Source: Escherichia virus TH21. From it: a stretch of 52,087 nt of DNA. The DNA lies in sequence record MT446395.1; one strand, given 5' to 3'. Position numbers and translations under genes: made by a program. Below the pieces are notes generated by a model. It was given only the letters and a program-made list of their open reading frames with translations. It was not told where the DNA came from and ran no database searches. This document shows positions 9,148-46,623 of the stretch, in pieces (the stretch's first letter is position 1; every line of letters starts with the position of its first letter).

Positions 9148-9627
9148 TTATTCTTTAGCTTTCCGTGCTGCTTCGTTTGCTGCTTTAATTTTTCGCCATG
9201 AGCGACATTCAGGCTTAGTGGCTAGTTCAGCCTCGGTGACGACGCGCAACATGTGACGCTTTTTGCAACGCAGCGTTAGCGGCTTACCGTTCCCGTCGAA
9301 TTGCAAGTCTGGTCGGCAGAATGTAGCGCGGAACCCTTCGCCAGTTCGCTTATATCGGTTGTGCGCCAGTTGAGCACCGCGCGCCGACATCATCCCACGC
9401 TTAAACCATTCCTCAACTGCCTGTCGAGTAACTTTTAATTGCTTCGCCATGTTCGCCTTGCTGCCGTAGAACTCAAACACAATATCAAGTCGCGCTCTTA
9501 ATCCGGCCTTTACTTCATCCTTGAGAACATAGTAACCTGACGGTCGTTTGCGCTGCTTCTTATCTTCCGTGCGGATAGTTCCGTTGTTACCGTTAAGAGT
9601 ACGCTTATCATTTGCATTCATTTTCAT
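9148..9627 (-). CDS. helix-turn-helix DNA-binding protein (putative transcriptional regulator)
   Basis: 159 aa, basic; HTH-like segment MAKQLKVTRQAVEEWFKRG. Confidence 0.4.
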   Translation of the reverse strand: MKMNANDKRTLNGNNGTIRTEDKKQRKRPSGYYVLKDEVKAGLRARLDIVFEFYGSKANMAKQLKVTRQAVEEWFKRGMMSARGAQLAHNRYKRTGEGFRATFCRPDLQFDGNGKPLTLRCKKRHMLRVVTEAELATKPECRSWRKIKAANEAARKAKE

Positions 9628-9635
9628 CACCTCAA

Positions 9636-9714: not shown

Positions 9715-11817
9715 ATGGCTATGCGCATTAAATCCATTAAAAAACAGATAGAAGAACTTGGCCCGCAAAAGATTAAAGAGATTCAGGATAAATTCACATT
9801 TGGCGACATGGTTCCTTATGAGTATCAGTGCGTAATGTATGACGAGATCGGCAAGCGCATTGCTCGCTATAAGCATCCATTCATCGTTAAAGCGTCAGTG
9901 TCGGCAGGTAAGACGATCGGCTTTGCCATGATTGCATCGCGCGTAAAAGAAATGGGCTTGTCTATGATGATACTGGCGCGTCAGGGCGATATAGTCGCTC
10001 AGGATAGTGAGGAGATCTCAAACTTCGGCGTTCCTAACTCAGTTTACTGTGCTGGCCTGAACACAAAATCAGCTTACTTCCCAATCGTTGTCGGTTCGGA
10101 AGGATCGGTTGCAAACGGTCTGTTTAAGGCGCTTGGTGATTTTACACCTATGGTGCTGGGTATTGATGAATGTCACCAGGTGGATTGGGAAGACCTTGCC
10201 GCCGCCATCGACAACGAAGAGACGATTGAAATGATGCTCACTGAAAAGGATGAGCGTGTATTCGTTGACTACCCGAAAAACAGCGAAGGTTATGTCAATG
10301 GATACCTTGATGGCGTAGAGGTTGGCGTTCAGGTGATGGATAAGCAATTGCTGATAAGCCGGAAGACTGGCGAGCCTGTTCTTGGAACAAAACGAAGCCA
10401 GTACACGATCATAATCACTGAATTGATGCGCCGCTGCAAAGAGAAGAACGGGAAGGAATTACGCATCTTCGGCATGACTGGTTCGGAGTTCAGAGGAACA
10501 GCGCCAATTGTTGTCGATAACCCTAAGCTGCCAGGATTCTGGCGTGAGCAGGTTACTAACATCGACACCAGCTACCTGATTGAGTTCGGCTCTGTTGTTC
10601 CAACAATCTTCGGAAGTGTCGGTGACGCTGGATATGATCTGGATGAGTTTAAGGCGTCCAGTCAGGATGGAACGGCTGACTTTGGTCAGAAAGAAATGAA
10701 GGCGATGGAGAAGAAAATCCATGATAACGCCAGCATGACCAAGCGAATAATGGGAATGGTAGTCGAAGAGGCGAAGAAGCGAAACGGTGTACTGATTACG
10801 TGTTCAGGCCAGCGCCATTGCAAAGAGGCGGCGAGCTATCTGCCACCTGACGCTACCTATGAGATCATCACGGAGAAGACGAACACCAAAAAACGACAAG
10901 CGATACTGGAGGCGGCGAACCGTGGCGAGATCAAATACATATTCCAGGTGGTAGCGCTAACCACTGGCGTTAACGTTCCGTTTTGGGATTTTTCGGTAAT
11001 CCTGCGCAAGATCGGCTCACTTACCCTGCTAATACAGTTACTTGGTCGAGGTATGCGATTGCTTAAGCCGTGGCAAAAAGCGATGGGAATGGTGAAAGAA
11101 GATCACCTGGTATGGGATTTCGCTGGCACGATGGATGAGCTTGGTCAGCTTTACTTCGATCCGATTCTTGAAGAGGCTCAGTACCAGCGCCGCTTTGATG
11201 GTAAGAAAGAGCCGAAAAAATGTGAACTGTGCGGAACCGAGAACAGCTTTTACGCCCGCCGCTGCATTCACAGAGACGAAAACGGCAATCGTTGTGAGTA
11301 TTTCTGGAAATCTCGAATCTGTGAAGACCAGATTGATGATCGCACTGGTGAGGTGATTGTTAAGGGATGTGGCGCTGAGAATGACGTAGTGGCGAGAATA
11401 TGCCGTTGCTGTGATGTGAGCCTGAAAGATCCCAATGATAATCTGACTGGTAAGGCTTACACCAAAAACGACTGGTGCACAGTGAATAGTTTTGAAGTAA
11501 CGCTGACACGCAATCAGACTGGTATTCTTTATCGTTACGATCTGACAGATTCAGTTGGAGTTAATTTCATCGCGTATGAAAAGTTCTTCCCGCAGTCAAC
11601 GGCACAGGTATGTCACACGATATGGAAACAGAAAGGGGTGCTGCCTCATGTGCATGACAGTAAGATCGCAAAGTTAATGGCAGCTTACAGAAGTGCTAAA
11701 ATGATTTTAAACAACGCTCACCACATAGCGCATCCAGTGCGGGTAACTCACCGCAAGAATGCAAAAGGTGAGGACATCATTTCACGTAAGGATTTTGGAT
11801 TGGACGGTAACTTATGA
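9715..11817 (+). CDS. ATP-dependent helicase, superfamily 2
   Basis: 700 aa; Walker A SAGKT; DECH box (GIDECHQV). Confidence 0.75.
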   Translation: MAMRIKSIKKQIEELGPQKIKEIQDKFTFGDMVPYEYQCVMYDEIGKRIARYKHPFIVKASVSAGKTIGFAMIASRVKEMGLSMMILARQGDIVAQDSEEISNFGVPNSVYCAGLNTKSAYFPIVVGSEGSVANGLFKALGDFTPMVLGIDECHQVDWEDLAAAIDNEETIEMMLTEKDERVFVDYPKNSEGYVNGYLDGVEVGVQVMDKQLLISRKTGEPVLGTKRSQYTIIITELMRRCKEKNGKELRIFGMTGSEFRGTAPIVVDNPKLPGFWREQVTNIDTSYLIEFGSVVPTIFGSVGDAGYDLDEFKASSQDGTADFGQKEMKAMEKKIHDNASMTKRIMGMVVEEAKKRNGVLITCSGQRHCKEAASYLPPDATYEIITEKTNTKKRQAILEAANRGEIKYIFQVVALTTGVNVPFWDFSVILRKIGSLTLLIQLLGRGMRLLKPWQKAMGMVKEDHLVWDFAGTMDELGQLYFDPILEEAQYQRRFDGKKEPKKCELCGTENSFYARRCIHRDENGNRCEYFWKSRICEDQIDDRTGEVIVKGCGAENDVVARICRCCDVSLKDPNDNLTGKAYTKNDWCTVNSFEVTLTRNQTGILYRYDLTDSVGVNFIAYEKFFPQSTAQVCHTIWKQKGVLPHVHDSKIAKLMAAYRSAKMILNNAHHIAHPVRVTHRKNAKGEDIISRKDFGLDGNL

Positions 11818-12242
11818 TTACAGATAAAGGCGACTACCTGGAATATTACACTCCAGACAAATCGGATACATGGACCGAAAGCAAACACCAGATCGATTGC
11901 GTGACCTGGACTAAAGTTAGGCATGGCGACCTATTATTCTGGCACACCGTTAATGAGGGCGAGAAGACGATGCATTCAGCCCTTGTTGACGGTCAGAGCG
12001 GGTTATTGAAGGGGGTTAGTGACTTTGTATTCCTTCTCGGCCTGTTCGGTAAATATCCGTTCGGGGCCATAGAATTGAAGCGAGTAAATAAAAGCGGGAA
12101 AGGCAAGGCATCACCAGTCAGCAAGAAGCAGAAAGATTTCCTCCGGCGTGTCCGTGAGCGTGGAGGATTCGCGGCGGTGGCGTACGGCCAGGAGGAATAC
12201 AAGAAAGCTGTTGCTGATATGCTGAATAGCACGAATTGCTAA
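11814..12242 (+). CDS. VRR-NUC-type nuclease
   Basis: 142 aa; D...ELK PD-(D/E)xK core (GVSDFVF...GAIELKR); ATGA overlap with helicase. Confidence 0.55.
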   Translation: MITDKGDYLEYYTPDKSDTWTESKHQIDCVTWTKVRHGDLLFWHTVNEGEKTMHSALVDGQSGLLKGVSDFVFLLGLFGKYPFGAIELKRVNKSGKGKASPVSKKQKDFLRRVRERGGFAAVAYGQEEYKKAVADMLNSTNC

Positions 12243-12243
12243 A
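12227..12243 (+). promoter_or_regulatory. cassette palindrome TAGCACGAATTGCTAAA overlapping the end of the VRR-NUC gene
   Basis: encodes ..STNC*; hairpin ggtgaggtg..cacctcatc with TATTAT; leader ATCGAAACGAAG. Confidence 0.5.
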
Positions 12244-12308
12244 GACGAATCGGTGAGGTGGTGTATTATCACCTCATCGAAACGAAGTAACCAACCAAGG
12301 AAATTAAA

Positions 12309-12581
12309 ATGAAAAAGTCAATCATCGCTCTACTGGCAGTTGTGGCAATGGCAGGTTGTGCAGAAGATACCAAGTTTTACGATTGTGGCAATGAATCCTT
12401 CACAGTAACCAAGTCGCAGATTGTTTCAGATAAGGGCGTTGTTATTGAGCGTGAAGGCGATCACTACGAAATGCAAACTTTCTTAGGGAAGGCGGTTTAC
12501 AACGTGACTGAAAGTCAGGTTAAAGTTAGCGTCGGCGGGTTCGTCGCTGTGAATAACTGCAAAGTGACTGAGGTTAAGTAA
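12309..12581 (+). CDS. small lipoprotein
   Basis: 90 aa; signal peptide with lipobox MAGC. Confidence 0.55.
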   Translation: MKKSIIALLAVVAMAGCAEDTKFYDCGNESFTVTKSQIVSDKGVVIEREGDHYEMQTFLGKAVYNVTESQVKVSVGGFVAVNNCKVTEVK

Positions 12582-12582
12582 G

Positions 12583-13311
12583 ATGATTGATTCAAACGAT
12601 AAAGACACTCATGACGCTTTCGTTAGCTTTGAGCAGATCGAGCGAGAAAACTTTATTACCAATGCGCTAGTTCCTGGTAACGGTCATTATCAAGCGGTTA
12701 AGCAGGACACCTTCTATCAGGTAACTGGAAACCGATACGCCGGAAGCAAGACTCCTGACGCAGTGCGTGACCTTTGGGCTACTGACAGAGAAGTGATCTC
12801 ATGGATGGAATCGCGTTATGGGAAGTATGACATTGACGCCGCCGCCAGCGATAATAATGCTGTTTGCGAGAAGTTCTACAGCGAGCAAGTGAACTGCCTC
12901 AAAATCTGGTGGGGTAGCAATAAGCACATCTGGCTTAATCCGCCGTACTCTCATCCAGATCCTTTTGTGAAGAAAGCGATTGAGCAAATGGAGCACAACA
13001 ATCAGATTGATATGTTGCTTCCTGGTGATAACTCAACGGCGTGGTTTGCCGAAGCCCGACGCAATTCGGCTGAAATAATCTGGATTGAGGCTGACATCAC
13101 AGAGATTGACAGTCAGGAATATTGCCGGACGGGGAGATTGGCCTTCATATCTGGACTGACCGGAAAGCCTGTCGATGGAAACAATAAAGGCAGCGTGATT
13201 TTTGTCATGCGAAAACTGCAAGAAGGCGAGACGCAGAAAACGACATACGTTAGCGTCTCTGATATTTGCCCTGGCGTAAGCCGTAAGAAACCACGTAAAC
13301 GGAGTGTTTAA
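12583..13311 (+). CDS. dam: DNA N6-adenine methyltransferase (Dam-like)
   Basis: 242 aa; NPPY catalytic motif (IWLNPPYS). Confidence 0.75.
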   Translation: MIDSNDKDTHDAFVSFEQIERENFITNALVPGNGHYQAVKQDTFYQVTGNRYAGSKTPDAVRDLWATDREVISWMESRYGKYDIDAAASDNNAVCEKFYSEQVNCLKIWWGSNKHIWLNPPYSHPDPFVKKAIEQMEHNNQIDMLLPGDNSTAWFAEARRNSAEIIWIEADITEIDSQEYCRTGRLAFISGLTGKPVDGNNKGSVIFVMRKLQEGETQKTTYVSVSDICPGVSRKKPRKRSV

Positions 13312-13312
13312 G

Positions 13313-13543
13313 ATGAGCAATGTACAAATTAATTTAACCGACAAAGGTCAGTATCTTTTATTCCGCGCCATCGTTTGTGAGGTGTTAACGAAAGCAGGAT
13401 TTAAGGGTGACGCTTGGGCGTTCTCGGATCTGGATATGTCATTCGAAGAAGTGCAGGATCAGCCGATTAACACATGGGCTAAAGCAATACGAAAGGATAT
13501 GGAAGACTATAAACGCGATTGCCCCGAAGATTTCGCAGAATAG
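13313..13543 (+). CDS. hypothetical protein
   Basis: 76 aa from ATG 13313 (GGAG 8 nt upstream); ORF track 13304 is a GTG extension. Confidence 0.45.
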   Translation: MSNVQINLTDKGQYLLFRAIVCEVLTKAGFKGDAWAFSDLDMSFEEVQDQPINTWAKAIRKDMEDYKRDCPEDFAE

Positions 13544-13557
13544 CACTAATTGCTAAA
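13541..13557 (+). promoter_or_regulatory. cassette palindrome TAGCACTAATTGCTAAA
   Basis: TAG stop overlaps; GC hairpin tacccgccgccgcgcgggta; leader ACGAGACGAGGAA. Confidence 0.5.
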
Positions 13558-13613
13558 CATACCCGCCGCCGCGCGGGTATACTTCTTTCATACCAACGAG
13601 ACGAGGAATCACC

Positions 13614-13847
13614 ATGAAGAAGCAACCTTTTAGCACTTACAACCAGCAGGCATACCGTAAAAATATTTTACTGCCGCACCTGCTTCGCCTGGCTAATGAG
13701 TGCGCAAGTGAAGCGCTGTCGCTTGGTAAGGACGGTGGGCTTGACGAAGTGATTGCCGTGACGTATCTCAAGGGCGCTTATGGTCATTTGCCAGTGGCTG
13801 ACTATCAAGCCATGTCGGGGAGCTTTGACATTTATGGTAACTGTTGA
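13614..13847 (+). CDS. hypothetical protein
   Basis: 77 aa ORF downstream of cassette leader. Confidence 0.45.
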   Translation: MKKQPFSTYNQQAYRKNILLPHLLRLANECASEALSLGKDGGLDEVIAVTYLKGAYGHLPVADYQAMSGSFDIYGNC

Positions 13848-14079
13848 GGTAGGCCGTCAGGCTGTTTGGAATCACTGCAAGGAGGCTGGAATAAGTGATG
13901 ATATTGCGCTTATAGCCAAGTATTTCGACATTAAAGATATATGCGTCATATTCAACGGAAAGATGACGTATATACACGAAAGGCCGCGTAAGCTGATCAG
14001 AGTTCCGGCAACTCCGGTGAAGATTGACTACAAGGCCTGCATTCAAGCAACGAAAGACGCAGCGAGAAGGTACAAATGA
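13780..14079 (+). CDS. hypothetical protein (start uncertain, possibly 13834)
   Basis: 99 aa ORF overlapping previous gene by 68 nt. Confidence 0.3.
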   Translation: MVICQWLTIKPCRGALTFMVTVEVGRQAVWNHCKEAGISDDIALIAKYFDIKDICVIFNGKMTYIHERPRKLIRVPATPVKIDYKACIQATKDAARRYK

Positions 14080-14213
14080 AACCACATGAATTTAGTGTTT
14101 TGGTTAATGAAATAATGAGAACTGTCAATAAATATGGTGGAACTCAGCAGTTGCGTGAGCAGGTGGTTAAAACTCTTTCAAGAAATGGCATTAAGCCGGA
14201 GCACAAGAAATGA
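14076..14213 (+). CDS. hypothetical small protein (45 aa)
   Basis: not in ORF track; ATGA overlaps at both ends. Confidence 0.35.
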   Translation: MKPHEFSVLVNEIMRTVNKYGGTQQLREQVVKTLSRNGIKPEHKK

Positions 14214-14461
14214 ACTTACCAGGCCTTGATTTTGACGCTGACAAATATCCGACTTGCAGCAATAACAATGAGACGTTCGCAATCATCCCTTTTGCTGACT
14301 GGTTGCCTTCGGATTTCGAAGATGTGCCATGTTCGCGCGGTGGCGGCTATAGCCTGATGTATTTTAGCCCATCAACTGGTATGATGGTTCCCAGCGAATC
14401 AGAGAGTGCAGGCGAAGCGGTTGAGCCAAATACTTTAACAACATGGTTGAAAAAGATTTGA
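14210..14461 (+). CDS. hypothetical acidic protein
   Basis: 83 aa, Asp/Glu-rich. Confidence 0.45.
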   Translation: MNLPGLDFDADKYPTCSNNNETFAIIPFADWLPSDFEDVPCSRGGGYSLMYFSPSTGMMVPSESESAGEAVEPNTLTTWLKKI

Positions 14462-14544
14462 TGCGCTGCTTAATTCCTGTATTATTACCGCCGCTAATTT
14501 GTTTTATTATCATCTACTTACTAACACGATAAGGATTTACAAAA

Positions 14545-15687
14545 ATGGCTATTCAAAAAATCACTGACGAACAATTCATTGCTGAGCGCGAAGCTGGTAA
14601 AACACTGCGCCAAATCGCCCAGGAATACGGGATGAACATTCGAACCGTTGAGCAGCGATCAAGTCGCCTGGCAAAGCGAGGTGAGTTCCACGGCAATAAG
14701 CACGTAAGCGTACACGTACCGGAGGGTTTTCATGTTAAGGGCACATCGACTATGATTCGCGCTGACGGTTCTGAGGTCGTGCGCTGGGTTAAGACCGATC
14801 AGGACAAGGAAAAGTTAGCCGCCATGATGGATGCTGCAATTGAAGCATTCTGTGACGAACTCCCGCGCGCGGCGGCTCAGCCTATCCTTGGTGAGCCTCA
14901 CTATGATGAAAATCTCCTGGCGCTCTACCCTGTATTCGATCTTCACATCGGTGCTATGGCCCACAAGCATGAATGCGGTGAGAACTACAGTACAGACATC
15001 TCAGAGAAAGTGCTGAAAAACTTCTTTGATTATTCCGTAGGCGTATCACCGAAGGCAAAGAAAGCGGTTCTGTTAATCGGCGGTGACTTCCTTCACTCTG
15101 ATGGCCTGGATGCTGTAACGCCTGCAAGCGGTCACGTACTGGATCAGGATAGTAGATACGCTAAGCTCGTTCACGTTGCAATCCGTTCCGTCCGCCGCGC
15201 GGTGGCGCAAATGCTGGATAAGCACGAAGAGGTCGAAATTCAGATCATTGAAGGGAACCATGACCAGGCGGGTATGATTTGGCTCCGCGCTGCAATGGCT
15301 GCATACTTTGAAGATGAGGTGCGCGTAACGGTTGATGTTTCACCTATGATTCTTCACCGTACGAAGTGGGGTAAAACATTGCTGGGATACACTCATGGTC
15401 ACACCATGAAGAAAGCAGATACTCGACTGGCGGCAATGGCTACTGACTTCCGCGAAGAGTTCGGTACGAGCAAATATATTTACACTCACTCAGGTCACTG
15501 GCATCACCAGACGATCACGGAAGGCACGCTGGGTATTGATGAGGTTCACGGTCAGCTTGGCGCGAAAGATGCCTACGCGGCGCGCGGCGGTTGGCGCTCA
15601 TATCGCCAGGCAGCGGTAATTGTCTACTCCAAGGAGTTCGGCGAAGTAGGTCGCTTCGTTTACCGTCCTGAAATGAGCGACATCTAA
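14545..15687 (+). CDS. HTH domain fused to calcineurin-like metallophosphoesterase
   Basis: 380 aa; N-terminal HTH-like KTLRQIAQEYGMNIRTVEQ; GDFLHSDG, GNHD, GHTH, GHWHH metal-binding motifs. Confidence 0.55.
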   Translation: MAIQKITDEQFIAEREAGKTLRQIAQEYGMNIRTVEQRSSRLAKRGEFHGNKHVSVHVPEGFHVKGTSTMIRADGSEVVRWVKTDQDKEKLAAMMDAAIEAFCDELPRAAAQPILGEPHYDENLLALYPVFDLHIGAMAHKHECGENYSTDISEKVLKNFFDYSVGVSPKAKKAVLLIGGDFLHSDGLDAVTPASGHVLDQDSRYAKLVHVAIRSVRRAVAQMLDKHEEVEIQIIEGNHDQAGMIWLRAAMAAYFEDEVRVTVDVSPMILHRTKWGKTLLGYTHGHTMKKADTRLAAMATDFREEFGTSKYIYTHSGHWHHQTITEGTLGIDEVHGQLGAKDAYAARGGWRSYRQAAVIVYSKEFGEVGRFVYRPEMSDI

Positions 15688-15704
15688 TAGCACGAATTGC
15701 CTAA
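15688..15704 (+). promoter_or_regulatory. cassette palindrome (TAGCACGAATTGCCTAA)
   Basis: directly after TAA stop; hairpin tatagcgcc-ggaa-ggcgctata. Confidence 0.45.
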
Positions 15705-15758
15705 CACTATAGCGCCGGAAGGCGCTATATTCATATCTCACTTACAGAGGATTCAATC

Positions 15759-15932
15759 ATGGTTAAATTATTTTGCGTTAAGAACACATCTAAAACCCTG
15801 CCTTTCACTGTTAACAATCCGTACAGCGCCGAGTATCAAGGTGACGGTAACTACAAGATTTACGGCGACGATATGACGTGGATTTTTGCGCCGCTTGATG
15901 GTGCGCTGGTTGAATTTATTATCGCTGACTAG
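15759..15932 (+). CDS. hypothetical small protein (57 aa)
   Basis: not in ORF track; RBS AGAGGA; followed by strong terminator. Confidence 0.4.
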   Translation: MVKLFCVKNTSKTLPFTVNNPYSAEYQGDGNYKIYGDDMTWIFAPLDGALVEFIIAD

Positions 15933-15959
15933 CGCAATAAAAACATAACGTTACGCACG

Positions 15960-15984
15960 GGGAGCCTTTAGGCTCCCTTTTTTT
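15960..15984 (+). terminator. intrinsic terminator ending the plus-strand early block
   Basis: hairpin gggagcc-ttta-ggctccc plus T7. Confidence 0.7.
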
Positions 15985-16052
15985 GTGCTTCTTTTCTATA
16001 CCGTGCTAATGTATTATGTTTTTTACTAACTGAGATATTGACAATTGCATAA

Positions 16053-16280
16053 ATGGTGGATCACATGAAAGAGGTATTAAACACTGTAACGGCTGGCACT
16101 GGCGGGGCATCTTTCGCTGGCGCTGCAACGGGCCAACTGGCGATCGCAGGGGCTACTTTTATCCTGTTCGTTTGTTTTGGCATTTGGGGTGCTTACTGGA
16201 AATACCAGGATAGCAAAGCCATTCGTCAGGCACTTGATTCGGGAGACTTGCCGACGGCGCTTAAACTAAGGGGTAAATAA
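16053..16280 (+). CDS. holin candidate
   Basis: 75 aa with one hydrophobic segment and charged C-terminus; immediately upstream of endolysin; alternative start 16065. Confidence 0.5.
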
Positions 16281-16777
16281 TGATGAGCGTAAACAGGACG
16301 CTTGCAAGCATTTCTTTTGGTGTAGCTTTATCGCTAACGCCTTCACTTGTTGAGAAGATTGAAGGCGTTGAGTACAAGCCGTATAAGGATATTGCCGGAG
16401 TTTGGACGGTGTGCGCTGGCATCACTGGACCTGACGTTATTCTTGGCAAGACCTACACCAAAAGAGAATGCGACGCATTGCTATACAAGCATATTGACAT
16501 CGCCAAGCGTGAGGTTGATAAGCGGATTAATGTTGACGTGCCGGATCACTTCCGTGCGGCAATGTACAGCTTCACTTTCAACGTTGGTACTGGTGCTTAC
16601 CGTAATTCCACTATGCTGAGACTTACTAACCAGGGTAAACTACTTGAAGCTTGTGAACAGCTATGGGCCTGGACTTACTTTAAGAATCCGAAGACCGGAA
16701 AGAAAGAGCGGTCCAAGGGGCTTAAGAATCGTCGGGCATTCGAATATGAATATTGTGTTAAGGAGCTACAGAAATGA
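16280..16777 (+). CDS. endolysin, GH24 lysozyme-like with possible signal-anchor N-terminus
   Basis: 165 aa; E...D...T catalytic spacing ([16 protein letters not shown]); N-terminal hydrophobic stretch. Confidence 0.75.
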
Positions 16778-17184
16778 GTTGTCTAAATTTACAGCGCGCT
16801 TTGGTTATCGGCTTCGTAGTGTGGGCCTTGTTCGTGTTATCAGGTTGTTCGGCAACATCTGCGCTGACTGGTTTAATTGGCAGCAAGCCAGAAATTAGCG
16901 CGCAGGCTGGGGCCGAGAACGTGAAGCAAACGGTAGGCGTTACCGGAAAGGTGGATAAGTCAAACGACAACGACACCACTATCAAAGATTCAAAGGTAGG
17001 AAAGGTTGATACGTCAAACGGGAAGTCTGTCAGTACATCAAGCATCAAGGCTGACACTATCATCGCGGATAAGATTGAGATCAGGAATGACTCAAAAGGT
17101 AATCTGATTTCTGGACTGGTATTCCTGTTCATCGGTATTCTGATGGTGATTTTCTATCTATGGCTGGAACGACGCAAAAAATAA
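16774..17184 (+). CDS. unimolecular spanin-like protein
   Basis: 136 aa; N-terminal lipoprotein signal (LSGC) and C-terminal transmembrane helix, as in T1 gp11-type u-spanin. Confidence 0.65.
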
Positions 17185-17186
17185 AA

Positions 17187-17209
17187 GGAGCCGAAAGGCT
17201 CCTTTTTTT
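17187..17209. terminator. bidirectional terminator between lysis cassette and minus-strand accessory operon
   Basis: hairpin ggagcc-gaaa-ggctcc with T-run on both strands. Confidence 0.7.
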
Positions 17210-17346
17210 ATCCAAATCTTTGCACCAGAAGCAACAATTCGCCTTCATTATTGCATAGAGTATGCTCATCACGTCGTCCGGCGCGCATTGATGAATTTAG
17301 CATTGAAAGAAGGGCTTGGTTAAGCCCGTCCTCGCTAATGCCATTC

Positions 17347-17721
17347 TCAGAACTGCATCTGATTATCGCGTCGATTACGACCTGGCTTTCCGAATAACTC
17401 TTCATCGCTCATCTTCTCTATGTTCATCATCTCCCATGTATAGCGATCGTTCTCACCGCCATAGCACCTGAAATGAAATTCAAACGGCCTTTTTTGCGCC
17501 CCTTTGGACCAGTACCAGTTGTTCACGCCGTCAAGGTATCCTTCGCCCATGCATCTTGCGATGAACTCCTTTGATGCTGATGATGCGAAGTAGCGAGGCG
17601 TAACTCCGGCAGCCTTCGCCAGTCGCTCGCACTCCCTATGCTTGTATATGAATACCGCCAGGTGCTGACGGTTGAATTTTTCATAGCCTTCGCAAAAACG
17701 GTACAGATCCAGAAGAAACAT
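17347..17721 (-). CDS. hypothetical protein
   Basis: 124 aa, Trp/Tyr/Cys-rich; starts 3 nt after the stop of the P-loop gene. Confidence 0.5.
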   Translation of the reverse strand: MFLLDLYRFCEGYEKFNRQHLAVFIYKHRECERLAKAAGVTPRYFASSASKEFIARCMGEGYLDGVNNWYWSKGAQKRPFEFHFRCYGGENDRYTWEMMNIEKMSDEELFGKPGRNRRDNQMQF

Positions 17722-17724
17722 AAT

Positions 17725-19308
17725 TTACCCCAGCAGTCGCGGATTAATGTAAATTTTATCACCAATCAGGCACGTATAGTTTTTCTCATCCAGCATAGGG
17801 ATCAGATGGTCTTTGATGCGAGTCATTACACCAGCCTGGCCCTCGAATGGCTTAACCTTACGCGCCGCTTCATATAGGGATCGGACACCTACAACGCCTT
17901 TCCCGTTCTTGCCTTGCTTGATCAGGATGTCAATAAGCTTGTTCATCTCCGCATGGTCGCCAGCGTGACCAGCAGCGTTTGCAGATGACAGATAAGTTTT
18001 ACTCAGTTCCTGGAACATAATTACAGCTTCTTGCATTGTATCAAGCTCAATCTCTCTGGACTTCTGCGGACTTCCGCCATTGGGATTGAACCAGTTACGC
18101 ACAGTGTGAAGAACCGCCGCGATCCTGATGGCCTGCTTATCAAACTTACCAAGCGCGCCGCGAAGCATTGTGTGTGAATACTTCCCGCCGTCCGCAAGGT
18201 GAGGTTCCATATCCTGACGCGCACGGTTGAGATATTTCATCGCCGACGTGCTCACTGTCAGGTTGACTTCGTGTTCGCTCATGATCTCATGGACCAGACG
18301 GAAGTAGTCCGCCTTGAGTCCGCCATCAATCGGCTCATATGTTGATTCGCCTTTTTCGTCAACGAATACACGCTCGCCAAGGAATGACTTCTCACGCACA
18401 AGCAAGAAACGTTCTGACACACCGATACCACGCGCACCAGCATTCATGATCGCGTTGATTGTTTCATCCTGTGCAATTACAGAGATGCAACCCATAGCGA
18501 TAAAGCTCATGTTATTGTCTGCGTTCGCACGCGCGATAGATACGTTACCAGCATCCCATGCCTTAAGCACAAGTTCGCTGTTCGTTTTCTTTGAGCCGTC
18601 ACCATAGGTCATGCCTAACAGTGAGTTTACGCTCGTTGCTTCATCCGAGATCACAGAGAAGTTCCCCTGGCGGTTGTTGATTCGCGCCAGACCTTCCGGC
18701 GTGGTGTCGGATACGGGGAATACGATGTCACAAAGGCGTTCCAGTTTTTCTTCCAGTTCTTCTTTTTCCTCAAACAGTGCCGCCATGTCGGACGGTGATT
18801 TTTCCTGCTTCATCTCCTTGGATAGAGCAGATAGTTTAGCCATAATCTTCTTGCGGTCGCGCTTTCGGATCTCGTTGAGTCGTTCAGTCTCTGCGATCAT
18901 CGGGGCCAGCGAAAGTGAGTTAATGGCTGATTTACCTGTCGATGGTGGCTGACTGGTTACGACGTAAAGCGCGGTCGGCTGTTGTGTTCCGTGATACTCA
19001 ACCGTAAAGCGGCCCAGCATGGCGGCTGATATGCATCCGAGGAAATGCATGTAAGCGGACGACTCGGGGAACTGAACTGAACGAGCGGCATTGCTTGACA
19101 GCTTACCAACGACATCATAATCGTTACCAAGTGAGATAACCGGATATTTGTCACCGCCCGAGTCGATTTCTGTTGGTGCTTTCCAGAACGACTGGCTTTG
19201 CCTGTACCCGTTCGCATTGATGGCAACGCGCAGGGGCGGCAGGTTATCGGCGGCGGCCACAGCCATAACCTGATCGATAGACAATTTATCTTCGTTAAAA
19301 TCAAACAT
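17725..19308 (-). CDS. P-loop NTPase, possibly VirE/DUF3987-like primase-associated helicase
   Basis: 527 aa from ATG 19308 (AAGGAG 7 nt upstream); Walker A-like SQPPSTGKS; N- and C-terminal segments recur in 24573..25127. Confidence 0.45.
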   Translation of the reverse strand: MFDFNEDKLSIDQVMAVAAADNLPPLRVAINANGYRQSQSFWKAPTEIDSGGDKYPVISLGNDYDVVGKLSSNAARSVQFPESSAYMHFLGCISAAMLGRFTVEYHGTQQPTALYVVTSQPPSTGKSAINSLSLAPMIAETERLNEIRKRDRKKIMAKLSALSKEMKQEKSPSDMAALFEEKEELEEKLERLCDIVFPVSDTTPEGLARINNRQGNFSVISDEATSVNSLLGMTYGDGSKKTNSELVLKAWDAGNVSIARANADNNMSFIAMGCISVIAQDETINAIMNAGARGIGVSERFLLVREKSFLGERVFVDEKGESTYEPIDGGLKADYFRLVHEIMSEHEVNLTVSTSAMKYLNRARQDMEPHLADGGKYSHTMLRGALGKFDKQAIRIAAVLHTVRNWFNPNGGSPQKSREIELDTMQEAVIMFQELSKTYLSSANAAGHAGDHAEMNKLIDILIKQGKNGKGVVGVRSLYEAARKVKPFEGQAGVMTRIKDHLIPMLDEKNYTCLIGDKIYINPRLLG

Positions 19309-19378
19309 TAAAAAACTCCTTAGTTGGTGCGCTAATGTTAACGCACCTATGGTAAAACCGCTTGCCAAAAAATGCTAC

Positions 19379-19732
19379 TTATTTATACGCCGACTCAAAT
19401 CTGTAAGTGCCGCATACTGTTTCGAATCCGACATCATCCGAGCGGTACAATTGCCAGGCTACGCCGTCGTTGTCGAAGATGTAACCAGCGTTACTACCGA
19501 GTCCTGCGTGCATGTCAACCTGGTAACGTTTGCCTTGAGTGAAGTCTTTTTTAACGGCAGATTTATGATTTACCTTAGTAACGTAAATGGTTTTAGTCTT
19601 GATGTAACGGCCCTTGATATCAAGGTTAACCCACTTGCCATCAACCTTGATTTGCTCTACCTCATCTTTTACGCGAGCTTTCAGAAGGCGGTTGTCGGAG
19701 GTAACGAAGTTTTTGGTGATTGTGGTAGCCAT
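19379..19732 (-). CDS. hypothetical protein
   Basis: 117 aa from ATG 19732 preceded by AAGGAAA and the conserved leader. Confidence 0.45.
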   Translation of the reverse strand: MATTITKNFVTSDNRLLKARVKDEVEQIKVDGKWVNLDIKGRYIKTKTIYVTKVNHKSAVKKDFTQGKRYQVDMHAGLGSNAGYIFDNDGVAWQLYRSDDVGFETVCGTYRFESAYK

Positions 19733-19796
19733 GATTATTTTCCTTTGGTGTGTTTCGTTTCGATGAGATGAATATACAGGAAAAGCCCCGAAGGGC

Positions 19797-19813
19797 TTTA
19801 GCAATTCGTGCTA
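19797..19813 (-). promoter_or_regulatory. cassette palindrome TAGCACGAATTGCTAAA overlapping the stop of the methyltransferase-like gene
   Basis: followed on minus strand by hairpin agccc-ttcg-gggct plus T-run, TATATT, leader ATCGAAACGAAAC. Confidence 0.5.
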
Positions 19814-20494
19814 TTTGGTTAAATGATTTGCCAGGTATACGGCGCGCGCAAATCCACGAGGAGTCAGTGAGCGCAACTGCTTGGTTTTTGCAGACTTCCC
19901 GCCGAGGTACTTCCATCCCCAAAAGAATCCAATGTTAATCGGGCCAGGCTTCTTCACTGGCTCAACGAATCCGTTACCATGCCAGATGCAAGTTTTCTTC
20001 GTGTAGCCGTCGTATTTCGGCATTTTTTCGTGGTACGGAAGATCGTGAGCTTTCATGAGTCCGCCGTATTCATACGGATTGAAGTAGAAGTCAGGCTTAC
20101 GCCACAGGCTTGACAGCTTGCCTACCGGATTCTCGACCATCCAGGGTGCCTGGAAGTGATTTCCGACTTCCTCGACGAGCTTCGCATTAGCCAGGGCGTA
20201 CGCCAGTTCATCATCACTGCGCTCATGCTGTGATCCAGACTGAGAGAACAGCGTGCAATCAGGGAATCCGATAACCATCTGCGCCGGAGGAAGGCCGAGC
20301 AATTCACACTTGGTAATGAAATCCTTGTCAATCCACATGTTGACGTAGTGAATGTTCTCATGCTTCATCTTGATGTGATATTCGCCATGATTGCCGGAGT
20401 CCGCGTTGAAGCAGTAGACGGTGTGACCATCTTCCGCCCATGGGAGGCCAGCGATACCAGAACCGTCGAACAAGCAGTAAATTACCTTTTTCAT
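19811..20494 (-). CDS. C5-cytosine methyltransferase-like protein (short, orphan)
   Basis: 227 aa; motif I-like CLFDGSGIAG, motif IV-like GFPDCTLFSQSG, motif VI-like VENP, in canonical order. Confidence 0.4.
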   Translation of the reverse strand: MKKVIYCLFDGSGIAGLPWAEDGHTVYCFNADSGNHGEYHIKMKHENIHYVNMWIDKDFITKCELLGLPPAQMVIGFPDCTLFSQSGSQHERSDDELAYALANAKLVEEVGNHFQAPWMVENPVGKLSSLWRKPDFYFNPYEYGGLMKAHDLPYHEKMPKYDGYTKKTCIWHGNGFVEPVKKPGPINIGFFWGWKYLGGKSAKTKQLRSLTPRGFARAVYLANHLTK

Positions 20495-24093: not shown

Positions 24094-24573
24094 ATGAAAG
24101 AGCAAGTAACACTAGGGCAGGTGATTCGTGAGATGGCAAAGGCAGCACTCAAGTCCGAGGATAAGCAATTCAGCGTGCCACTAAGTAAGATTGCAAGCAT
24201 TATCGGAGTCGATGGCGATAACATTCCAAAGCTAAAGAGTTCATACATCTACAACACGACAGCCCGCATGACTGAGCTAAGGGATGTTGGATTGAAAGCG
24301 ACTCACTCCTATGACGACGACGAGGGTGATAGCGAGTTCGGTGAATCAACCCTGGCAGGTGATAGAAGACTGGTTATCAAGCTGGTACCTGGCACGGCGA
24401 ACATTGGAATCAGAAAGAAGACCAATAACGCGATAAAGGAAGAGGCAATCACCGAGTTCAAGGCGAGAATTTCAAAGGTTATGCCAGACATTTCAGAGTA
24501 TGAAGGAGAGGCGCTTGCCGCTGCAATGAAGGCAATTAAAGATTACCGCTCAATCATTGAGGAGATTAAATAA
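24094..24573 (+). CDS. hypothetical protein, first gene of plus-strand accessory operon
   Basis: 159 aa; strong RBS. Confidence 0.5.
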   Translation: MKEQVTLGQVIREMAKAALKSEDKQFSVPLSKIASIIGVDGDNIPKLKSSYIYNTTARMTELRDVGLKATHSYDDDEGDSEFGESTLAGDRRLVIKLVPGTANIGIRKKTNNAIKEEAITEFKARISKVMPDISEYEGEALAAAMKAIKDYRSIIEEIK

Positions 24574-25127
24574 TGTTTGATTTCAACGAAGATAAGTTAA
24601 CTGATGACCAAGTGATGGAAGTCGCCAGGCAAGATAACCTTCTGCCATTGCGCGTGGCAATCAACGCAAACGGATACCGTCAAGCTTTCAAGTTCTGGTG
24701 CAGCGCAGAAGAGATGCTGCGCGTCAAACTGAGCCACAAACAAAGCGTCGTGGTTAAAAGGATTAGCCACCAGGGCCGCAACGGAAAGGGAGTGGTTGGC
24801 ATTAGATCTCTATACGAGGCAATCCGAAAGGTCCAGCCATTCGTCGGGCGCGAAGGGATTATGCATGACCTGACAAATAACATCATCCCAGCACTACAGG
24901 AGGCAGGAATTGTTTGCCTCATTGGCGATAAGATTTATGTGCATCCGGCCCTGGTGGGAATGGATGAACGAGACGTGTACACCTGGTGCAGTCAGCACCG
25001 ATCCGACGCGCGACGTTCTCACTACGTGCCACCGCAGACAACAATCCATGGCTATGATGCCGATGAGGTGGAGAAGGCCATCCAGTTCTACCGGAAAGCG
25101 AAATCTCTCCTGAACGGTGAATGCTAA
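24573..25127 (+). CDS. domain-deleted paralogue of the 17725..19308 P-loop protein (N- and C-terminal segments only)
   Basis: 184 aa; MFDFNEDKL..PLRVAINANGYRQ and GKGVVG.RSLYEA..K..PF...CLIGDKIY match both ends of the 527-aa protein; no Walker A. Confidence 0.5.
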   Translation: MFDFNEDKLTDDQVMEVARQDNLLPLRVAINANGYRQAFKFWCSAEEMLRVKLSHKQSVVVKRISHQGRNGKGVVGIRSLYEAIRKVQPFVGREGIMHDLTNNIIPALQEAGIVCLIGDKIYVHPALVGMDERDVYTWCSQHRSDARRSHYVPPQTTIHGYDADEVEKAIQFYRKAKSLLNGEC

Positions 25128-28706: not shown

Positions 28707-29246
28707 ATGAATCAGATGTACACCATGATTAAGCACGAATTGAATACCGCGGAAATCAATGCGCCAGTCTACGTGTTTGATTACGACGGTACGCTGTCGG
28801 ACGGATCGCATCGTTTGCATAAGTTGCCTACAAAGGATTTGCACCTTACTGAGTCATGGTCTGAGTTCAATCGATTGTCAGAGCGTGATGAGCCTATCGA
28901 ATCAACCATTCAGGTAATGAATAGCCTGTACTACTCCGGCGCGTTCATCATCATACTAACCGGGCGCTCAGATGAGGTGTGCGAGATTTCAACTAAATGG
29001 CTTCACGATGCTGGCGCTAAATACAACGTTCTGGTCATGCGCCAGGATGATGACAACCGCAAGGATACGATCATCAAGGAAGAATTTTTACGATACATTG
29101 GCTTGCACCGCATCACCGCAGCGTGGGATGATAGCGTGAGTGTTATAAAGCACTTCCGCAGCTTAGGTATTACCACCTATCAGGTTTGTGATTACGCCGA
29201 TAACAATCGAGAGGATTTAAAATCTCATGGGGTGCATAAGAAGTGA
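28707..29246 (+). CDS. HAD-superfamily phosphatase/nucleotidase-like protein
   Basis: 179 aa; motif I FDYDGTLSDG (DxDGT). Confidence 0.5.
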   Translation: MNQMYTMIKHELNTAEINAPVYVFDYDGTLSDGSHRLHKLPTKDLHLTESWSEFNRLSERDEPIESTIQVMNSLYYSGAFIIILTGRSDEVCEISTKWLHDAGAKYNVLVMRQDDDNRKDTIIKEEFLRYIGLHRITAAWDDSVSVIKHFRSLGITTYQVCDYADNNREDLKSHGVHKK

Positions 29247-29730
29247 TTCAGAGTACCTAAAATTCCTATTCAGTTACAATGACGGGGTGATAACTTGGCG
29301 AAACAAGTCATCACCTCAAAGTAGGATTGTTTTAGGTGAGCGAGCAGGAAGTTTTGATAAGGATGGATACCTGATCGTAAGGGTTAGAAATCAAACATCG
29401 TCGATACATAGGATCGTGTGGGTTTATCATAACGGAGAAATACCAGCCGGATTTGAAATTGACCATGTTGACGGCGATAAACTAAATAACAGGATTGAAA
29501 ACTTAAGACTCACAACAAGATCTGTTAATTGCAGTAATCAGAGAAAGAGAATTGATAACACCAGCGGTGTTTGTGGTGTAACATTCATGAAAGATAGGCT
29601 AAAATACAGGGCGCAAGTCAGAGGTGTAAGGCTTGGTCAATTCGATACTAAAGAAGAAGCCGCCGAGGCTGTTGCTAAGTACAGATCATATTCTGGCGGA
29701 TTCACTGAAAGACACGGTAAGGAGATTTAA
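29227..29730 (+). CDS. HNH homing endonuclease (HNH + AP2-like DNA-binding domain)
   Basis: 167 aa; HNH core IDHVDGDKLNNRIENLR; paralogous to 36891..37373. Confidence 0.65.
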   Translation: MGCIRSDSEYLKFLFSYNDGVITWRNKSSPQSRIVLGERAGSFDKDGYLIVRVRNQTSSIHRIVWVYHNGEIPAGFEIDHVDGDKLNNRIENLRLTTRSVNCSNQRKRIDNTSGVCGVTFMKDRLKYRAQVRGVRLGQFDTKEEAAEAVAKYRSYSGGFTERHGKEI

Positions 29731-29733
29731 AAA

Positions 29734-30354
29734 ATGTCAAAGATTATCATTCTCAACGGTCCAGCTTCGGTTGGTAAAGACACGATTGGCAACGCCCTAG
29801 CAGCAGATTACAACTGCATCCCGACCAGCTTCAAGCGTCCGATGTTTGAGATTGCAGCATCCATCCTTGGGGCCAGGGCTTTTTCAAAGTTCATCACAGC
29901 ATACGACGACCGCGATCAGAAAGAGATGCCTCAGAGCTTCCTTGGTGGCAAGACATGCCGCGAGTTCATGATCTGGATTAGCGAGTCTGTGGTAAAGCCG
30001 CTATTTGGCAACCAGCAATTCGGAAAGCTGATGAGCGAACATATCAAGCTGTGTGACGAAGGATTCTGTTTTGTGTGTACTGATGGCGGCTTCCCTGATG
30101 AAGTGATCAGGCTCGTTGAAGATGGTCACGATGTTACCCTGGTCCGCTTGTTCATGGATGGCAAGACTTTCGCGGGAGATAGCCGTGATTACATCCGCAT
30201 CAAGCAATCGCACTTCCCTGATTACAAGAAATATAACGAGCATGATGTGCATCTGGTAAATGGTGATGTTGATGATGGCGTCCTTAAAGTAGTTCGCGCT
30301 TGCTTGGTTAGTCCTTCAATGGATGATGATTGGGCAGACGATATTCCTTGGTAA
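29734..30354 (+). CDS. deoxynucleoside monophosphate kinase with acidic SSB-tip-like C-terminus
   Basis: 206 aa; P-loop GPASVGKDT; C-terminus DDDWADDIPW. Confidence 0.6.
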   Translation: MSKIIILNGPASVGKDTIGNALAADYNCIPTSFKRPMFEIAASILGARAFSKFITAYDDRDQKEMPQSFLGGKTCREFMIWISESVVKPLFGNQQFGKLMSEHIKLCDEGFCFVCTDGGFPDEVIRLVEDGHDVTLVRLFMDGKTFAGDSRDYIRIKQSHFPDYKKYNEHDVHLVNGDVDDGVLKVVRACLVSPSMDDDWADDIPW

Positions 30355-43716: not shown

Positions 43717-46623
43717 ATGACAGATAAATTTGCAGGGCTATCGCTTGGGGTTGACGTATCCCAGGTTGACGCGGCGGTTAAATCTCTGGATGACTTATCC
43801 AGGGCGAACGGCACAGCCGGAAAGAGCTTTGACAATTTCATTGATGCCGAGCAAGTCGCAAAGCAGAAGATGAAAGAGTTCAACAACGAGGTGAAGCGCC
43901 AGAAGAAGGAGTTCTCTGATGTAGAAAAGGTCATAGACCCTACAGCGAACAAGATGCGACAGTTGCAGCAAGCAAGTGTGGATCTGGATAAACTCTGGAG
44001 TAAGGGCATGGTCCCAGACAAGGAGTTTTTTAACCTTTCAAGCATGATTGAGACTCAGATTAACGCGCTTAATCGTTCGAAACTTGCCATGACAGAAGAA
44101 GGTCGGGCGGCGCTGGAGAACTCAAAGGCAAAGGCCGCAGCAAAGAACAGCGCTGATTCATTCCTTAAATCACTAAGGGATCAGGCGAACGCAGCTACCA
44201 TGACAAAGCAGGAGCTATTGGAGCTGAGAGCCGCAGAGCTTGGAGTGACAGCTCAGGCCGCTCCATTTATCGCCGCAATGAATAAGCAGGCAAAGGCTAC
44301 AAACGTCGCTGGGCTTTCTGTTGGTGAGTACAAAAACGCAATGCGTATGCTACCAGCTCAAATAACTGATGTGGTTACTTCCCTTGCGTCAGGGATGCCT
44401 GTGTGGTTGGTGGCTGTTCAGCAGGGCGGACAGATCAAGGACTCATTCGGCGGCGTAGGCAATACATTCAAGGTTCTGCTTTCATACCTGAATCCAGTGA
44501 CAGTTGGGATGACTGCGATGGGTATTGCGCTTGCTGGCCTGGCTAAAGCTGGTTACGACTCCTACCGCTCAATTACAGATATGAAAAATGCCTTGATTGA
44601 AACTGGCGGATTTGCAGCGGCGAGCGCGGCGGACCTTGATCAGATCGCAAACAAGATTGCAGATACCAGCAACGCGACTATCGGATCTGTTCGAGATATT
44701 GCAACTGAACTAGCAAAAAGCGGTAAGTACACTCAGGACCAAATCAGGAATATCACCCGCGCCACCGCTGAATGGTCAGCCGCAACGGGCCGAGCTACGA
44801 GCGACATTATAAGTGACTTTGGCAAGATTGCAGATGATCCGGTGAAAGGGCTTGCGAAGCTGAATGAGCAATACAACTTCCTGGAGAAAGGCCAACTGAC
44901 ATATATCAACGGGATTGTTAAAACCAAGGGCGAAACCGAAGCTGCGACGGAGGCGACCAAGCTGTTTGCTGACACCATGGAAGAACGCATGAGCAAGATT
45001 GCAGGCACTGCAACGCCGCTTGAAAAAATGTGGACTGACATTAAGAAATGGTCATCCGACGCTTGGGGTTGGGTTGGCGATCATACACTCGGCGCTCTAA
45101 ACCTCATCATTGATGTGGTTAGCGGTACGGTGATTCAGGTAAAAATGATTCTCGCCAAGGGTGACGAATACATTTCTAACTTTATCGCATCGGCAATAAA
45201 GGCAACGCAAAGCCTGCCTGGTATGAGTGATTTCGGTAAGGATATTCTCAACGAACAGCAGACTATCGTTAAGAACTCCAAAGACACCTATGACAGCCTC
45301 GCAAAAGATCTGGACGTGATTAACGCGCGAGTAGAAAAGGGCGAGATGGGTTACATCAATGCTCTAAAAGGACGTCGTGATCTGGAGAAGCAGTACAGCA
45401 AGGAGACTAAGGAGGCCGTAGAGAAGGAAGCTAAAGCGATTGAGGAGCAAAACAGGAAGAAAGCAAAAAGCAGCAGCGGAGTCACCAAGGGCGCTACAGA
45501 GCAGCTTGACAAAGAACTTTACATTCTCAAAGCTCAGCTAAAAGTACTCCAGGAACATAGCTCTATAAACGACAAGATCTCAAGTCAAAGGAAAGCTCTG
45601 TGGGCTACTGAGGCTCAGATTGCAATCCTCCAGGACGCGCAGAGTAAGCGCAAACTTACCAACGAGGAAAAGGCATTGCTCGCCAGTCAGCAAAAGGTGT
45701 TATCGCTATCGAAGGAGAAGGCCGAGTTAGGGGATCAGATTGTCCAGCAGGAGCGAATTAACAAGCTGAATGATGAGTCAATGAAGTTCATCATGCAGAT
45801 TGACGCAGCGAGTAAAAGCCTTAACGCCACGCGAGCTATGGGTACTCGCGAAGCTGAGCGGCAGATTCAGCTAGAGAAGATTAGGGCTGACTATATGTCA
45901 AAAGGTGGCGGCGCTGATGACTCTGCACTGTCGAACATGATTGATAAGCAGAAGGAGTATTACGCGGAAGAGGATCAGCTTCGTGGTGATTGGTTAGCTG
46001 GGGCGCAGCGTGCATTCGCCGATTACGGAGAGAGTGCAAACGACATGAATGCAAATGTATATGACGTCACAATGGCATCCCTTAACGGAATGAGCGATAT
46101 GATGACCGAGTTCTTGATGACTGGCCAGGCAAACTTTGCCGACTTTGCAAAGAGCATTATCAGCCAGATCATTAAGATGATCACGCAGATGGTAATCTTC
46201 AACTCACTATCTGGAATGGGAATAGGCAGCGGCAAGGGATTCTCTTTCGCTAACTCAGGGTGGTTCGCCACTGGCGGTTACACCGGAGATGGCGGCAAGT
46301 ATGAGCCAGCAGGCACGGTTCATAAAGGTGAGTTTGTCATGACCAAGGAAGCTACCAAGCGAATTGGCGTCGATAACCTTTATCGAATGATGCGCGGTTA
46401 TGCTAATGGCGGCGTGGTTGGTGGAACAACAATCGGTGGCGGCGGTAGTGCAATCATGGCTGGCGGCGTGACAATCGGAAGCATCCCTGTTAGCATAAAT
46501 AACGGTAGCGATCCGAAGGGCATGGAGCAGGGCGTGAAAATGATTTTCAAGCAAATGATTCAGGAATCATGTGCCCAGGGTGGCGAAGTTTACAATTACA
46601 TCAACGGAAAAGCAGGAGCGTAA
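43717..46623 (+). CDS. tape measure protein
   Basis: 968 aa; coiled-coil-rich; hydrophobic segments; follows chaperone. Confidence 0.8.

Follow-up and report, generated by a model that had tools for sequence, protein, structure and literature searches.

The locus at 14545-15687 of Escherichia virus TH21 raises the question of which activity is carried by a phage protein that joins a helix-turn-helix (HTH) domain to a calcineurin-like metallophosphoesterase (MPE). The window that we analyzed, meaning the whole stretch of 52,087 nt deposited as MT446395.1, begins and ends with the same sequence. Its first 872 bases (1-872) are 100% identical to its last 872 bases (51216-52087). The assembly is therefore either circularly closed or terminally redundant, and it represents the complete genome, of approximately 51.2 kb, of a T1-like siphophage (Drexlerviridae). 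Over the 10 kb from 10000 to 20000, the sequence shares 94% nucleotide identity with Escherichia phage BUCT-XGG-1, and approximately 89% nucleotide identity was found with Nouzillyvirus ESCO41, a member of the Drexlerviridae. The gene order around the MPE gene is that of phage T1.

The gene is a real ORF on the + strand, with an ATG start codon, 380 amino acids and a TAA stop codon. An earlier note on this DNA, made from its letters alone, had proposed a 380-aa ORF at these coordinates, and the start, the stop and an AAGGA ribosome-binding site bear it out. The gene and the parts of its product are as follows:

14531-14535, + strand: Shine-Dalgarno sequence AAGGA, 9 nt 5' of the ATG, read from the sequence
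14545-15687, + strand: complete coding sequence, T1 gp16 ortholog and PHROG 704 member
14545-14712, + strand: predicted N-terminal HTH DNA-binding domain (aa 1-56), from the AlphaFold2 (AF2) model and profile matches
14713-14859, + strand: conserved beta-hairpin (aa 62-71 and 77-86) and helix (aa 88-105), from the AF2 model and conservation
14860-14904, + strand: variable linker (aa 106-120), from conservation and the AF2 model
14905-15684, + strand: MPE catalytic core (aa 121-380) with five motifs

The protein matched the PHROG 704 profile, labeled 'DNA repair exonuclease', over practically its full length (E 2.9e-152; aa 4-378 aligned to positions 2-389 of the 390 in the profile) and showed 66% identity over 379 aa, again full length, to gp16 of phage T1 (ST16, YP_003929.1). 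With this full-length profile match and a genomic position as in T1 and ESCO41, the TH21 protein is, on sequence grounds, without doubt the ortholog of T1 gp16 (ST16). The two proteins have the same HTH-hairpin-MPE architecture, and the T1 gene likewise has the Dam region on one side and the lysis cassette on the other and is followed by a terminator hairpin; no difference of substance separates them. A deposited protein of Escherichia phage BUCT-XGG-1 shows 98.9% identity. The gene was already catalogued, as T1 gp16 and in PHROG 704, and in TH21 it is an ordinary member of its family. Phages with PHROG 704 proteins include Drexlerviridae, Guernseyvirinae and many other siphophages, and the gene was found in more than 2000 phage records. 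It is a core gene of the Drexlerviridae, being carried by 508 of 522 of them (PMC13164509). A library of 1.84 billion representative proteins yielded relatives in 4615 clusters (50% identity) at E ≤ 1e-3 and in 966 clusters at E ≤ 1e-30; HTH plus MPE is the usual domain arrangement in this very large family of phage proteins.

The family name 'DNA repair exonuclease / phosphoesterase' derives from automated annotation alone, and our literature search found no biochemical or genetic work on T1 gp16 or its family. Two publications were considered and set aside. The PUA-Cal-HAD paper deals with a calcineurin-like enzyme of host defence and has no bearing on the T1 gp16 family. Phage PTXU04 of the CRISPRi-ART paper appears to be of a non-T1 type (92 CDS, one of which encodes a polyvalent protein of 2,198 aa), and a phosphoesterase is nowhere mentioned in that paper.

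We aligned the TH21 protein with 128 diverse relatives (30-81% identity to the query) for conservation analysis, and a 128-sequence alignment was also the input of the AF2 model (mean pLDDT 94, pTM 0.83). The catalytic core contains the following motifs:

14938-14952, + strand: motif I, DLHIG (aa 132-136)
15082-15105, + strand: motif II, GDFLHSDG (aa 180-187)
15253-15264, + strand: motif III, GNHD (aa 237-240)
15391-15405, + strand: motif IV, THGHT (aa 283-287)
15493-15507, + strand: motif V, GHWHH (aa 317-321)

These are the five motifs of the MPE superfamily (DxH, GDxxD/H, GNH[DE], H and GHxH), and the core also has the four-layer alpha/beta sandwich fold of that superfamily. Residues D132, H134, G180, D181, N238, H239, H284 and H320 were invariant in the 128 relatives, while H184, H318 and D240 were at least 90% conserved. 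Such conservation of metal ligands is far beyond chance and, with the full binuclear ligand set kept, it indicates an intact catalytic site on which selection is strong. A loss of ligands upon careful alignment, which the earlier note had raised against its own reading, was looked for in this way and the ligands were all retained. That note was also right that a complete set of phosphoesterase motifs exists, and three of the strings that it quoted (GDFLHSDG, GNHD, GHWHH) are present at the positions given above, but its 'GHTH' does not occur in the sequence, in which motif IV reads THGHT, and motif I had been overlooked.

The TH21 protein had no match to Pfam Metallophos (PF00149) or Metallophos_2, even at E ≤ 1. 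At E < 0.01, 10 of 50 relatives matched PF00149 and 8 of 50 matched PF12850, with one relative (P0169) passing the Pfam cut-off (25.1 vs 21.5 bits). By these profile results, the family is a divergent MPE clade that the Pfam model misses. Searches of Pfam, NCBIfam and PDB sequences with the single protein gave no significant match for the catalytic domain, and the family was therefore approached through profiles and structure. PADLOC gave no match.

Foldseek placed the protein in an undifferentiated cluster (Rv0805, Vps29, DP1, Mre11) with near-equal E values of approximately 4e-7 to 1e-6, and Rv0805, like CpdA a class III cNMP phosphodiesterase, ranked first within this cluster, which we counted against a nuclease. 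The family profile, either full-length or core, reached only nuclease MPEs in PDB, all of them below significance. With Mre11 from T. maritima (E 0.05-0.18), motifs I and II aligned, including the GDxxH histidine, and the nuclease MPE from P. putida was reached at E 0.3-0.8. In the viral structure library, more distant relatives carried the automatic name 'DNA polymerase II small subunit'. These comparisons point consistently towards nucleases, with modest margins. The HTH plus MPE architecture given in the earlier note was correct, and among the three activities that it had offered (a site-directed nuclease, a phosphatase acting on host regulatory proteins and a cyclic-nucleotide phosphodiesterase), the nuclease fits best.

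The TH21 protein could be placed neither in Mre11/SbcD nor with DP1. Members of Mre11/SbcD, including T4 gp47 and the SbcD-like protein of T5, have a C-terminal capping domain and Rad50-binding helices. The TH21 protein is without both and has instead an added N-terminal HTH and hairpin; in the AF2 model the last core strands (aa 356-373) are followed by a 5-residue helix and no further C-terminal residues. No SbcC/Rad50 was found in three of the four largest TH21 ORFs (the 907-aa tail fibre and the helicases of 700 and 547 aa), and none is listed in the full T1 annotation; the fourth large ORF (968 aa, 43717-46623) is at the position that the tape-measure protein has in T1. Since the capping domain and the SbcC/Rad50 partner are missing and the similarity is below threshold, we ruled out membership of Mre11/SbcD. 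DP1, the small subunit of archaeal PolD and a proofreading 3'-5' exonuclease, has 13% identity to the TH21 protein, and membership of this group was ruled out as well because no OB fold was identified, there is no DP2 and the phage has no polymerase.

P. putida MPE/PdeM is a small stand-alone nuclease from a DNA-repair context, with weak motif III matches to the TH21 protein. The NCBIfam match to the ligase-associated endonuclease PdeM (TIGR04123) was weak, at 19.6 bits against a cut-off of 150, and this ssDNA endonuclease differs from the TH21 protein in having no HTH and in its operon partnership. The MPEs of cluster A mycobacteriophages (Bxb1 gp47, L5 gp54, A10ZJ24 gp48) are approximately 255 aa long, with neither HTH nor hairpin. 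Bxb1 gp47 is a recombination directionality factor that is needed for DNA replication and has weak exonuclease activity, while A10ZJ24 gp48 degrades host DNA (PMC11795197, PMC12287305). A DNA polymerase gene is present in Bxb1 and absent from T1-like phages. When the 50-sequence family profile was compared by hhalign, the probability was 7.7% with gp47 alone and 4.8% with a 21-sequence gp47 profile, and motifs III to V alone aligned, at approximately 30% identity. Specific homology to the Bxb1 gp47 family was rejected as undemonstrated at these profile-profile probabilities (approximately 5-8%), and we regard Bxb1 gp47 and A10ZJ24 gp48 as analogues rather than demonstrated close homologues. 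The two families have the same structural neighbours.

The N-terminal segment is basic (pI 9.8) and was modeled by AF2 as three helices (aa 8-16, 21-27 and 32-44) with a pLDDT of approximately 95 (95-96 over aa 11-40). Pfam HTH matches of the single sequence were weak (E 0.015-0.15, aa 13-46). A profile of approximately 58 residues made from 38 family members matched solved HTHs of the LuxR/FixJ/GerE type, sigma-70 region 4, LysR and Fis in PDB, with E values from 5e-5 to 2e-3. The best matches were RhlR (E 5.3e-5) and DesR (8.5e-5), then VraR, NarL, GerE and CnrH. Many relatives individually match HTH families of Pfam, and the close homologue P0060 has a precomputed PF08281 call. The HTH, of the LuxR/FixJ/GerE and sigma-70 region 4 type, is thus recognisable both by profile and by predicted structure; the helices, the profile matches and the pI uphold the N-terminal HTH first proposed from the letters. 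It is kept in nearly all relatives (7% gaps), the Campylobacter homologues being without it, and it evolves fast, with 15% identity among distant members vs 38% for the catalytic core. The hairpin-helix segment that follows (aa 62-105) matched no known domain. Its identity among distant members (34%) is similar to that of the catalytic core, and its residues G75 and W81 are at least 90% conserved. The linker is the least conserved part of the protein (38% identity among close relatives and 13% among distant ones) and has no regular secondary structure in the AF2 model.

The gene stands among genes of DNA metabolism and close to those of lysis. The features around it, and others that bear on its role, are as follows:

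9148-9630, - strand: 160-aa 'transcriptional regulator' (phrog_2856) with weak Cro/YdaS-like HTH matches
9715-11817: helicase
11814-12242: VRR-NUC
12309-12581, + strand: 90-aa ORF with a lipoprotein signal (LPAM_1, E 0.002; ...LLAVVAMAGC)
12583-13311, + strand: Dam-type N6-adenine methylase, followed by several small ORFs before the MPE gene
15759-15932, + strand: 57-aa DUF7244/standalone SH3-like protein (PF23896, E 3e-30; phrog_4788)
19811-20494, - strand: phrog_757 DNA methyltransferase, a second methylase gene on the strand opposite to Dam
28707-29246, + strand: 'polynucleotide kinase' (PHROGs label)
29227-29730, + strand: HNH endonuclease
29734-30354, + strand: dNMP kinase

In Drexlerviridae, the MPE gene closes the rightward replication-module operon. 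The phrog_2856 gene and the helicase operon, whose last member is the MPE gene, are transcribed in divergent directions, and the phrog_2856 protein is a candidate regulator of that operon. The 90-aa ORF between VRR-NUC and Dam starts with the lipoprotein signal, and its product may be exported as a small lipoprotein, for example one that acts in superinfection exclusion. The phage also encodes RecE/Erf, two helicases and a primase, and no polymerase. As a separate observation on one of these helicases, the 184-aa ORF at 24573-25127 (+ strand; phrog_7327) has a module of approximately 70-90 aa in common with the C-terminus of the 547-aa helicase (17725-19368, - strand) and looks like a duplicated or free-standing copy of its C-terminal domain.

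Downstream of the MPE gene, the 57-aa SH3-like ORF lies between that gene and the holin gene. A 2026 paper proposed that the SH3-like protein is an accessory to the lysis module of Drexlerviridae and reported that, in Drexlerviridae without the SH3 gene, a polynucleotide kinase and a dNMP kinase usually follow the MPE gene (PMC13164509). We confirmed the latter arrangement in the Webervirus Klebsiella phage SmellyBerry; in Webervirus the MPE gene overlaps the 'polynucleotide kinase' gene immediately 3' of it. The TH21 ORF with the same label matched only positions 152-290 of 295 of a T4-type Pnkp profile, which correspond to the HAD 3'-phosphatase half and not to the kinase. Unlike in Webervirus, the 3'-phosphatase and dNMP kinase genes of TH21 are distant from the MPE gene. 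More distant phages gave further contexts. In Vibrio phage K121, the MPE gene has SSB and endonuclease genes as neighbours and the lysis cassette directly 3', and in Campylobacter phage F360 the HTH-less homologue follows genes for a Holliday-junction resolvase and a DNA ligase, the ligase gene being directly 5'. The gene is near MazG and HD hydrolase genes in a Rhizobium phage. In Guernseyvirinae it belongs to a small cassette surrounded by tail genes, a setting that gives little indication of its function. Neighbours of DNA or nucleotide metabolism were thus found in four of five distant phage lineages.

The intergenic region contains a palindrome to which, according to the earlier note, the HTH might bind. 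This region and the lysis cassette beyond it include three hairpins:

15708-15729, + strand: hairpin TATAGCGCC-GGAA-GGCGCTATA, 21 nt past the stop codon
15959-15978, + strand: strong terminator hairpin GGGGAGCC..GGCTCCCT, then a T-run
17183-17206, - strand: convergent strong terminator-like hairpin after the spanin gene

The first of these is a single 9-bp stem, a perfect inverted repeat with a GNRA loop (GGAA), and its RNA fold has a free energy of -17.8 kcal/mol (z -3.1). ESCO41 has the same stem with the loop GAAA. The T1 annotation gives a rho-independent terminator at the equivalent position; its stem is unrelated in sequence, although the recognition helices of the T1 and TH21 HTHs are similar. 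The sole other site in the TH21 genome that resembles the palindrome differs from it at three positions. We therefore rejected the palindrome as an operator for the HTH, and the hairpin is most likely a transcription terminator or attenuator, or an mRNA 3' stabiliser. The order downstream of the MPE gene is this hairpin, the SH3 protein gene, the strong terminator and then the genes for holin, endolysin and spanin. With strong hairpins bracketing it, the lysis cassette would form a transcription unit separate from the MPE gene.

Taken together, the conserved active site, the nuclease MPEs among the profile neighbours, the HTH, the DNA-metabolism context and the core-gene distribution suggest that the protein is probably a DNA nuclease acting in phage DNA metabolism. 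That the substrate would be DNA, as well as the kind of cleavage and the biological role, we infer from these lines of evidence. The protein would be a Mn2+/Mg2+-dependent DNA phosphodiesterase and, within the calcineurin-like MPE superfamily, a stand-alone nuclease on the DP1/Mre11-like branch. Its basic HTH of the LuxR/sigma-r4 type, probably together with the conserved hairpin, would hold DNA near the binuclear site and so stand in for the OB fold and DP2 that serve DP1 and for the capping domain and Rad50 that serve Mre11. The gene would be transcribed at the end of the rightward helicase/VRR-NUC/Dam replication-module operon, 5' of the lysis cassette. Its placement and neighbours suggest two roles, which could be combined. 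The enzyme may trim or cleave DNA ends during phage replication and recombination-dependent replication, and it may break down host DNA, the products of which would feed salvage by the phage 3'-phosphatase and dNMP kinase. Besides the rank of Rv0805, we counted against a nuclease that the matches to Mre11 and other nuclease MPEs are below significance, that the MPE fold alone leaves the substrate unfixed, that the gene is among tail genes in Guernseyvirinae and that the profile probability with the Bxb1 gp47 family is approximately 5%.

Several other readings of the same gene were weighed. A rather unlikely one, yet the best placed among them, is an end-healing phosphoesterase. It would clear broken DNA or RNA of 3'-phosphate or 2',3'-cyclic phosphate ends and would act with the phage Pnkp-like 3'-phosphatase or kinase and a ligase to repair what host nucleases have damaged. 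End healing of this kind is known from the MPE domain of Clostridium thermocellum Pnkp. The overlap with the 'polynucleotide kinase' gene in Webervirus, the position directly 3' of the DNA ligase gene in Campylobacter phage F360 and the weak NCBIfam match to PdeM all favour such an enzyme, and end-healing enzymes of the MPE type exist (PMC2190708). It seems quite improbable that the protein is an anti-defence phosphodiesterase that degrades the cyclic nucleotide or oligonucleotide signals of CBASS, Pycsar, Thoeris or type III CRISPR systems. The lowest probability was given to a Ser/Thr/Tyr protein phosphatase acting on host regulators in the manner of lambda NinI, a reading that we consider very improbable. 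NinI is a member of the same superfamily and lambda encodes such a phosphatase 5' of its late genes; the PPP-type signatures found in NinI (GDxHG, GDxVDRG, GNHE) are lacking in the TH21 protein.

To a primary role as transcription factor we gave as little credit as to the anti-defence enzyme. The HTH would then control late or lysis genes from the place that Q has in lambdoid phages, and the MPE would be a module for regulation or sensing. Both in Drexlerviridae and in Vibrio phage K121 the lysis cassette comes directly 3' of the gene, the HTH is of the LuxR/GerE/sigma-r4 activator type and no late regulator is annotated in T1-like phages. However, the active site is complete and invariant, which points to enzymatic activity as what selection maintains, and in TH21 both the hairpin and the strong terminator at 15959-15978 stand between the gene and the lysis cassette. 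Furthermore, the gene is away from the lysis genes in the Guernseyvirinae, Campylobacter and Rhizobium phages, and the Campylobacter homologues have no HTH at all.

The DNA nuclease that we favour also has a more specific form, which we put forward tentatively and with a small chance of being correct. The HTH-MPE protein could supply the phage-specific nuclease that is missing from a replication system without its own polymerase, either as a DP1-like exonuclease or as the function that degrades the host chromosome. As a DP1-like enzyme, it would use its HTH and hairpin to place the exonuclease at particular DNA sites or at the host Pol III replisome. If it degrades the host chromosome, the fast-evolving HTH might discriminate host from phage DNA. 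T1-like phages were described in the older literature as degrading the host chromosome, and in the older T1 genetics literature this function is called 'gene 2.5'. To our knowledge, the classical T1 function was never mapped to a sequence.

T1-like phages are often present in phage therapy collections and often contaminate laboratories. The gene studied here is among their most conserved non-structural genes, with relatives in the thousands. A defined activity for gp16 would show what cuts DNA in these polymerase-less phages, with a bearing on how they spare their own DNA. It would also test whether Bxb1 gp47, A10ZJ24 gp48 and other stand-alone phage MPEs belong to one general class of nucleases for replication or host takeover.
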